Positions 2,032 through 2,520 of a stretch of DNA of 28,923 nt are shown here, in pieces (positions within the stretch are counted from its first letter, which is position 1; every line of letters begins with the position of its first letter). Source of the DNA: an uncultured Clostridia bacterium. GTDB taxonomy: Bacteria > Bacillota > Clostridia > Christensenellales > Borkfalkiaceae. Where the stretch lies: contig CAMOVY010000001.1 in NCBI GenBank assembly GCA_946627905.1, positions 1 through 28,923 of the forward strand, written 5' to 3'. The notes under the pieces were generated by a model. The model made no database searches. It was given only the letters and a program-made list of their open reading frames with translations, and was not told where the DNA came from. A program made the position numbers and the translations under genes.

Positions 2032-2064
2032 CAAAAAGAAACTCCCTTCGCATAGCAAAGGGAG
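2032..2064 (-). terminator. Intrinsic terminator in the 5' leader of the ABC operon
   Basis: Minus strand CTCCCTTTGC-TAT-GCGAAGGGAG (10 bp with one G-U) followed by TTTCTTTTTG; lies about 36 nt upstream of the lipoprotein ATG and downstream of the promoter. Confidence 0.8.
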
Positions 2065-2158
2065 GGACGTAAATCAATAAGGCATATTTTGCCTTAAAGT
2101 TCCAGAAATTTCTCCCCTTTGCCGTTAGGTGTTGCCCTTTCGGTTCAGGTTTATCGTC
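2032..2158 (-). promoter_or_regulatory. Candidate riboswitch or attenuator leader, class unassigned
   Basis: About 125 nt between promoter and terminator, with several hairpins and a segment (2112-2122) complementary to the terminator 5' arm. Confidence 0.6.
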
Positions 2159-2161
2159 TTT

Positions 2162-2190
2162 ATTTTAACATAATAAAGCGCGAAAGTCAA
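2162..2190 (-). promoter_or_regulatory. SigA-type promoter of the ABC operon
   Basis: TTGACT-N17-TAAAAT with a TG extension. Confidence 0.75.
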
Positions 2191-2199
2191 ATAAAAAAA

Positions 2200-2460
2200 T
2201 CAGGCTTTATTTTGCGCTTTCAAATATTTTTCGCGCGTGGCAATTCCGCCGCGGATATGCCGTTCGTCAAGATTTTTACGCAAAACCTTTTTAACCTTGT
2301 TAAACAGCGTTTTGTCAATAAAGTACAGCCGTTCGGACACGTCTTTATGCACCGTCGACTTGGAAAAATGAAAAACTTTCGCCGCGTCCCTTACGGTTGC
2401 GCCCGTTTCGGCAATATACTGCGCCTCTTTAAGCGTTCTGTCGATAAGGTCTTCACGCAT
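2200..2460 (-). CDS. spoIIID: Sporulation transcriptional regulator SpoIIID
   Basis: AQYIAETGATVRDAAKVFHFSKSTVHKDVSERL and RHIRGGIATREKY match SpoIIID. Start moved to MREDL (GGGGGA RBS). Confidence 0.95.
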   Translation of the reverse strand: MREDLIDRTLKEAQYIAETGATVRDAAKVFHFSKSTVHKDVSERLYFIDKTLFNKVKKVLRKNLDERHIRGGIATREKYLKAQNKA

Positions 2461-2491
2461 TGTATTATCCCCCGAATTAAAAGAATAATAC

Positions 2492-2520
2492 ATTTTATGC
2501 GCTTATCTTTCAGTATATAC
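2492..2520 (-). promoter_or_regulatory. Putative SigE promoter of spoIIID
   Basis: GTATATA-N14-CATAAAAT resembles the SigE consensus; spoIIID is an established SigE-regulon gene. Confidence 0.6.

Follow-up and report, generated by a model that had tools for sequence, protein, structure and literature searches.

What does the structured leader of an ABC importer operon in an uncultured Clostridia bacterium respond to, and which other genes stand under the same control? The leader lies on the minus strand of the 28,923-nt stretch of DNA analysed here (the window), downstream of spoIIID (2200-2493, minus strand), which is a conserved synteny marker outside the regulated unit. The regulated genes are on the minus strand as well. 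The first encodes the substrate-binding protein (SBP; 988-1995), a lipoprotein of a NitT/TauT-type ABC importer, with the Shine-Dalgarno sequence GGAG at 2006-2003 and an ATG at 1995. It is followed by an ABC permease (213-1004; BPD_transp_1, SaoP/TauC/SsuC-like) and by the N-terminal 72 residues of an ABC ATPase (1-216), whose gene is cut by the contig end. A sequence-only reading of this region had proposed a novel or variant metabolite sensor whose ligand would reveal the substrate of the transporter. Here we describe the leader and its predicted switching, trace its relatives through the Clostridia, and weigh the candidate effectors.

Leader architecture and predicted switching

A sigma-70-type promoter (2190-2162, minus strand) precedes the leader, where the sequence-only reading had placed TTGACT-N17-TAAAAT. 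Its -35 box TTGACT (2190-2185) and -10 box TAAAAT (2167-2162) match the consensus at 10 of 12 positions, and the 17-nt spacer carries a TG extension; orthologous leaders have TTGACA-N17-TAAAAT at equal spacing to the hairpin. Transcription would start at about 2157-2155, some 8 nt before a three-tier sensor hairpin of 34 nt (2149-2116, minus strand) that is built of three 3-bp helices. The outer helix P1 pairs CCU (2149-2147) with AGG (2118-2116), the middle helix P2 pairs CCG (2143-2141) with CGG (2124-2122), and the inner helix P3 pairs AGG (2138-2136) with CCU (2129-2127) around the loop GCAACA (2135-2130). P2 and P3 are the helices previously written as CCG-AA-AGG(GCAACA)CCT-AA-CGG, and they turn out to be the inner part of a conserved, covarying element. 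Purine-rich internal loops (GAA/CAA and AA/AA) keep the three helices apart, and the hairpin has two-fold symmetry, both of its strands reading YCU-RA-NNNN-RA-AGR.

Two further structures follow on the same strand. The second hairpin, UAAGGCA-AAAUA-UGCCUUA (2096-2078), is the perfect 7-bp stem already recognised in the sequence, and it is conserved in orthologous leaders. The intrinsic terminator, CTCCCTTTGC-TAT-GCGAAGGGAG followed by a T-run (2064-2033), consists of a 10-bp stem (2064-2055/2051-2042), the loop TAT and a U-tract (2041-2033), and the 3' end of the transcript is predicted near 2033. Its compensatory changes in relatives, described below, corroborate the U-tailed terminator proposed before the first gene. 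The 136-nt leader as a whole folds better than 200 of 200 shuffled versions (z = -3.15).

The strand GCAAAGGGGAG (2122-2112, minus strand) links the hairpin to the terminator. It overlaps the 3' strands of P2 and P1, is a near-duplicate of the terminator 3' arm, and is complementary to the terminator 5' arm (2064-2055); the 3' strand of P1 and the bases that follow it can therefore pair either with the 5' strand of P1 or with the terminator 5' arm. The predicted minimum-energy fold of the full leader is the terminator state. For a transcript cut at the end of the terminator 5' arm, the minimum-energy fold opens P1, keeps P2 and P3 and forms the antiterminator, at -28.0 kcal/mol vs -25.7 kcal/mol with the hairpin enforced; the second hairpin caps the antiterminator helix. 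Over 107 distinct leaders the native antiterminator duplex has a mean of -11.2 kcal/mol, compared with -9.95 kcal/mol for swapped partners (0 of 200 permutations reach the native mean) and -6.85 kcal/mol for shuffled strands. Because the truncated fold opens P1 and the native antiterminator and terminator pairs are coupled, P1 is the predicted switching helix, and its stabilisation would favour termination, making the leader an OFF switch. The mutually exclusive antiterminator of the sequence-only reading is thereby upheld by both conservation and folding. A closing helix suggested alongside it, GACG(A)TAAA/TTTACGTC, fared differently: 44% of its cells are paired in 26 leaders vs 43% in shuffles, and it is local to the window and its closest relatives.

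At several other loci (L208-L210, L228, L317, L318 and L322) the hairpin occurs without a terminator, and the 3' strand of P1 runs into a Shine-Dalgarno sequence that lies a few bases upstream of the start codon. In L208-L210 and L228 this version is a second copy, located between the gene for a TM1266-like protein and the SBP gene, and in L317, L318 and L322 it stands before hydG. Judging from their layout, these occluding copies are predicted to apply the same OFF logic to translation. The 3' strand of P1 is thus common to hairpin and expression platform, by way of the antiterminator in the window and the 107 leaders and by way of the Shine-Dalgarno sequence in these versions.

Conservation and covariation of the hairpin

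Three models were used to follow the hairpin: R1 in the genus search, R2 in the family and class search, and R3, which was built from 53 diverse members. For the window hairpin (2149-2116) the bit scores are 46.5 (R1), 44.6 (R2) and 46.4 (R3), and a search of the window's own genome by BLAST and R1 found no further copies. R1 recovers the hairpin in 116 of the 120 genomes of the genus, nearly always as one copy per genome. Every inspected locus of the genus has it before the importer, and nearly all orthologous importer loci of the genus have the leader. In the family sample R2 detects it in 60 of 150 genomes, which represent 15 of 23 genera. The hairpin was also found in further families both of the order and of the class, R2 accounting for one such family in the class. 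All diverse hits that were inspected precede the gene order [TM1266]-SBP-permease-ATPase, save two weak variant hits. Four weak look-alikes found by R1 or R2 (L070 at G126:C75:1625-1686, L071 at G116:C8:5224-5285, L227 and L229) were excluded from membership. Their outer part, CCUAAACUG...UAGUGAAGG, is shared, but their inner stem (CACNNACAAGUG) differs and is longer; the genes behind them, of ~240 aa, are unrelated, no terminator is present, and the look-alikes may be a relative of the element or a chance resemblance.

Orthologous leaders keep both hairpins, the terminator and the antiterminator pairing. The core of 26 leaders reads CCU-RA-ACYN-AA-AGG-loop-CCU-RA-NRGY-RA-AGG, and RNAalifold applied to these leaders gives the nested three-helix hairpin and the terminator, whose stem shows many compensatory changes. 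The second hairpin is extended in relatives by a GAAUU...UAAUC base, and paired changes can be made out by eye in its stem (AAGGC/GCCUU, CAAGG/CCUUG and AAAGCC/GGCUUU). At the level of the genus P2 alone covaries, P1 and P3 being invariant. In the diverse sets all three helices covary, with compensatory changes in 8 of 9 pairs, and the covariation on which the metabolite-sensor proposal had been made to depend is thus present. P1 occurs as CCU/AGG, UCU/AGA, CUU/AAG, UUU/AAA and GCU/AGC, and P3 as AGG/CCU, AGA/UCU and GGG/CCC. A topology of two separate hairpins was also considered; it is contradicted by variants that combine UCU/AGA with AGG/CCU or CCU/AGG with AGA/UCU, which fit the nested topology. 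The unpaired loop bases are invariant across families. Over all alignments, 95-98% of the cells of the sensor hairpin are paired vs 77-92% in shuffles. In the diverse set, pairing amounts to 97.7% of cells in the model-fitted alignment vs 81.5% in shuffles and to 94.8% vs 76.5% in a plain MAFFT alignment of the 53 hand-picked members, two figures that lean towards structure since some of the 53 members were picked with a descriptor requiring pairing.

At the gathering threshold, Rfam 15 finds tRNAs only in the window and matches the hairpin to no family, and it returns nothing relevant on the related and hyd-linked loci, in keeping with the earlier description of the leader as unassigned.

A regulon of hydrogenase maturation genes and the importer

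Searching 150 sampled Clostridia with R3 gave matches in 36 genomes, with 42 matches at E up to 0.05. Of these 42, 33 lie directly before a gene for TM1266, hydE, hydG, hydF, an aspartate-ammonia-lyase-like protein (aspA-like) or an SBP, including all 25 with E below 0.005. Judged by these sequence matches, the window leader is a member of an uncatalogued leader class that precedes [FeFe]-hydrogenase cofactor-maturation genes. In this light, the idea of reading the transporter's substrate from the ligand has to be refined, the wider regulon being [FeFe]-hydrogenase cofactor maturation (hydE, hydG, hydF, TM1266, aspA-like), and none of the candidates put forward earlier (thiamine, flavin, folate, purine and sulfonate) gained support. 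Our search of the literature on TM1266, hydrogenase maturation and riboswitch candidates of the Christensenellales found no description of this RNA or of a link to the importer. To our knowledge, the control of [FeFe]-hydrogenase cofactor assembly is essentially unknown.

Outside the genus, the usual first gene after the hairpin encodes an 82-aa TM1266-like protein (PF21699, TIGR03959; nearest structure 2NZC; ACT/NikR-C-like) and is followed by the importer; the importer operons of other genera of the family and of f55 start with TM1266 behind the same hairpin. TM1266 is called a "putative regulator", a name drawn from its gene neighbourhood. Its genes are present in 98 of the 150 sampled Clostridia genomes, normally before the radical-SAM maturases HydE and HydG. 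A recognisable hairpin precedes a minority of them, in about one third of TM1266-positive genomes by R3, and a strict descriptor finds it in 12 of 76 regions upstream of TM1266 vs 1 of 76 reverse-complement controls. The genus keeps TM1266 in 117 of 120 genomes, unlinked from the importer, and no convincing hairpin was found near these TM1266 genes. The one TM1266-like gene of the window's genome (G000:C9:15163-15399, L198) lies 60 nt from a contig end, its upstream region is unassembled, and the genes after it encode a short-chain dehydrogenase and thymidylate synthase. Distant TM1266-SBP operons in G051 and G045 have terminator-bearing leaders in which no model recognises the hairpin. In one Clostridia genome, a gene for a HutP-family RNA-binding regulator (L239, 2119-2532, minus strand) lies directly upstream of a hairpin-TM1266-radical-SAM unit.

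The searches made with the SBP point to no substrate of the importer. A sequence search for structures returned 3HN0 as its sole match, a structural-genomics entry labelled "nitrate transport protein". The AlphaFold model of the SBP has a pLDDT of 89, and its comparison with the PDB by Foldseek gave TM-scores of ~0.3, which are uninformative because the SBP is circularly permuted relative to most homologues, as had been recognised in describing the transporter as permuted. PDB 3HN0 and the proteins of many genus members have the segment that corresponds to SBP residues ~204-334 first and the one corresponding to ~27-195 second. Permuted and non-permuted forms are both found behind the same leader, and G094, which has two paralogous importers with a leader each, carries one of each form. 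Its two operons (L068/L069) have after the permease no ATPase but a 240-aa protein with no assigned family and an 88-aa protein that is PqqD-like by eye, both conserved in the two paralogous operons. In several genomes of the genus (L008, L015, L026, L027, L030, L032 and L034), 200-300 nt of short palindrome-rich repeats, with units such as TTATAAACGGCGCAATACTGCGTT..., lie between the leader terminator and the SBP start; they resemble REP-like or miniature mobile repeats.

We examined five genomes of the genus, of which four reach a completeness of 94% or more: all contain [FeFe]-hydrogenase catalytic domains, none has HydG, and none has HydE or HydF above curated cut-offs. HydE and HydF were surveyed in these five genomes, and HydG in the 150 genomes of the family sample, where it occurs in 0 and HydA in 141. 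In this family of gut bacteria HydA thus looks intact and HydG is missing, and the control element of hydrogenase maturation stands before an ABC importer. Five more families of the order that have TM1266-importer operons follow suit, with 0/5 for HydG and 5/5 for HydA. In the class sample TM1266 adjoins this type of importer at 7 of 11 loci in genomes that lack HydG vs 0 of 68 in HydG-positive ones, and the five genomes checked among those HydG-lacking carriers have HydA; all these counts of HydG, HydA and importer ignore phylogeny. In G282, hydA lies directly upstream of the series leader-TM1266-leader2-SBP. In the window's genome HydA has retained its H-cluster motifs, which read TSCSPGW, MPCSCKKFE and EIMGCPGGCING. 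The main [FeFe]-hydrogenases of G000 (C72:1150-2007, L334) and G025 (L333) have TSCSPGW instead of the canonical TSCCPxW as motif 1, and a congener (L337) has the canonical TSCCPAW.

In terms of gene content, these counts suggest that the importer may be an alternative to maturase-based synthesis, possibly by uptake of a cofactor precursor. A fuller version, which we regard as unlikely, is that the importer, together with TM1266, would replace HydE, HydG and HydF in Christensenellales and in a few more lineages of gut Clostridia, by importing a preformed [2Fe]-subcluster precursor or a late intermediate released by neighbours, sensed by the hairpin alone or together with TM1266. Were this so, it would amount to an H-cluster salvage route that could explain active enzyme in HydA owners without maturases. 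Import of a precursor would represent a new form of cross-feeding between gut bacteria, one based on a metal cofactor, and would be relevant to the long-standing puzzle of hydrogenase owners that have no maturases. Should the importer bring in no precursor, the element would still be a new riboswitch or attenuator class. An RNA element common to hydE, hydG, hydF, TM1266 and the importer offers a concrete regulatory target, and a 34-nt RNA and an 82-aa protein are small enough for direct binding tests.

Candidate effectors and likeness to known systems

Our preferred explanation, to which we assign a probability of roughly 45%, is that the leader is an off-type attenuator of the importer operon with the TM1266-like protein as its effector. 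Binding of the effector to the hairpin would hold P1 closed and leave the terminator free to form, and transcription would stop near 2033; in the absence of the effector the antiterminator would win and the importer would be expressed. The TM1266-like protein would bind the symmetric RNA as an oligomer loaded with its ligand, in the fashion of PyrR or TRAP, and the signal would be the cell's supply of a precursor of the H-cluster, the hydrogenase cofactor. An oligomeric effector is favoured because the stem is two-fold symmetric (L301 has two near-identical half-sites), and TM1266 in particular because the order leader-TM1266-leader2-target resembles the pyr operon and because TM1266 has no DNA-binding domain. 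The retention of TM1266 in the genus, though unlinked from the importer, also counts for an effector role. In the class sample TM1266 is present in 31 of 31 motif-positive genomes vs 65 of 118 motif-negative ones, and if the genomes are restricted to HydG-positive ones, 26 of 81 that encode TM1266 carry the motif vs 0 of 11 that lack the protein (Fisher 0.03), a co-occurrence that is partly circular, many motifs adjoining the TM1266 gene, and that ignores relatedness. Where the motif and TM1266 are apart, in 13 genomes, the two co-occur no more often than expected from background. TM1266 has a median pI of 7.9 and a net charge of about +1, untypical of a nucleic-acid binder and not decisive either way, and we know of no RNA-binding activity for it. 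A TM1266 effector is further weakened because most TM1266 genes have no recognisable hairpin before them and because two expression platforms and single-copy regulons are equally typical of riboswitches.

That point leads to the alternative of a true riboswitch, a serious if tentative contender, in which the hairpin would bind a small molecule or metal species directly and thereby close P1 and cause termination. As ligand one would expect the importer substrate, or else a building block or intermediate from the H-cluster pathway, with TM1266 as a co-regulated carrier or transport regulator. Conserved bases in internal loops flanked by covarying helices, one sensor domain joined to two platforms (terminator and Shine-Dalgarno occlusion) and the spread of the motif over many families before functionally related genes all fit a riboswitch, as does the persistence of the motif in the genus, where TM1266 is encoded at another place. 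Aptamers in the form of small rod-like hairpins are known, among them xanthine/NMT1, THF-II and NAD+-II. Against this stand the very small size of the aptamer (9 canonical pairs) and its strict two-fold symmetry, an uncommon design where the pocket must hold an asymmetric metabolite, as do the count of motif-positive genomes without TM1266 (0 of 31), a gene set that points to no ligand candidate, and the lack of a match to any Rfam riboswitch class. The metabolite-sensor proposal stands in part: the leader is uncatalogued, conserved and covarying, with an exclusive terminator and antiterminator, but a protein effector is at least as likely as direct metabolite sensing because of the two-fold symmetry and the constant association with a TM1266-like gene.

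The remaining explanations, taken together, claim a small share of our belief. One is a constitutive structured leader, consisting of a stabilising 5' hairpin and a leaky terminator, or else a small RNA gene, with no effector switch. It agrees with the terminator state being the lowest in energy for the full leader, but is improbable given that changes in the 3' strand of the hairpin go along with changes in the terminator 5' arm, that the hairpin is re-used with Shine-Dalgarno-occluding platforms, and that its unpaired loop bases do not vary between families. Another, which the evidence largely refutes and to which we give hardly any credence, is a variant PyrR attenuator or a degenerate TPP riboswitch governing an importer of a pyrimidine or thiamine precursor. 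NMT1/ThiY-type binding proteins do belong to the same transporter family, CCUGA...AAAGG resembles the P4/P5 arm of TPP aptamers, and in E-value mode the sole Rfam match of the leader is PyrR (RF00515; 32.1 bits, E 0.0077 in a 311-nt search). This match falls below the gathering score of 54, however, and its alignment covers the second hairpin and the terminator, the 26 positions of the PyrR-binding loop being replaced by 8 unrelated bases. The echo of a TPP aptamer heard in the sequence-only reading came to nothing, there being no RF00059 match at E up to 10 and no P2/P3 arm with CUGAGA in the sequence. Elsewhere the motif stands before hydE, hydG, hydF and TM1266, not before pyr or thi genes.

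Among known systems, the likeness to TPP aptamers is local and consists of ACCUGA-helix-...-AAAGG in the P4/P5 (pyrophosphate-sensor) arm; the element described here has no P2/P3 pyrimidine-sensor arm and is a duplicated half-site, not half of a TPP aptamer. The rod-like riboswitches xanthine-I (NMT1 motif), THF-II (folE motif) and HMP-PP (thiS motif) are single hairpins of ~35-55 nt with conserved internal loops, and the NMT1 motif precedes NMT1/SsuA-type binding proteins. Our element shares with them its size, the single hairpin with conserved internal loops and the frequent control of transporters, whereas their internal loops are asymmetric, their gene associations differ, and Rfam assigns it to none of them. 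TRAP, in the trp system of Bacillus, uses one RNA element for termination and for hiding the ribosome-binding site at different genes, and binds 9-11 single-stranded GAG/UAG triplets around an 11-mer ring. The two control modes at different genes recur here, and so does a regulator gene that may lie apart from the genes it controls, as is the case for TM1266 in the genus; the RNA itself, in contrast, is a short folded hairpin carrying purine internal loops. PyrR attenuation in the pyr operon of B. subtilis has the same succession of a 5' hairpin acting as anti-antiterminator, an antiterminator and a terminator, and the regulator gene directly follows the first leader with more leaders downstream, an order matched by leader-TM1266-leader2-SBP in L208-L210. 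In contrast to the pyr system, the PyrR loop consensus is absent here, the candidate regulator is an 82-aa ACT/NikR-C-like protein rather than a phosphoribosyltransferase, the RNA is two-fold symmetric, and the regulon comprises hydrogenase maturation and the importer instead of pyrimidine synthesis.
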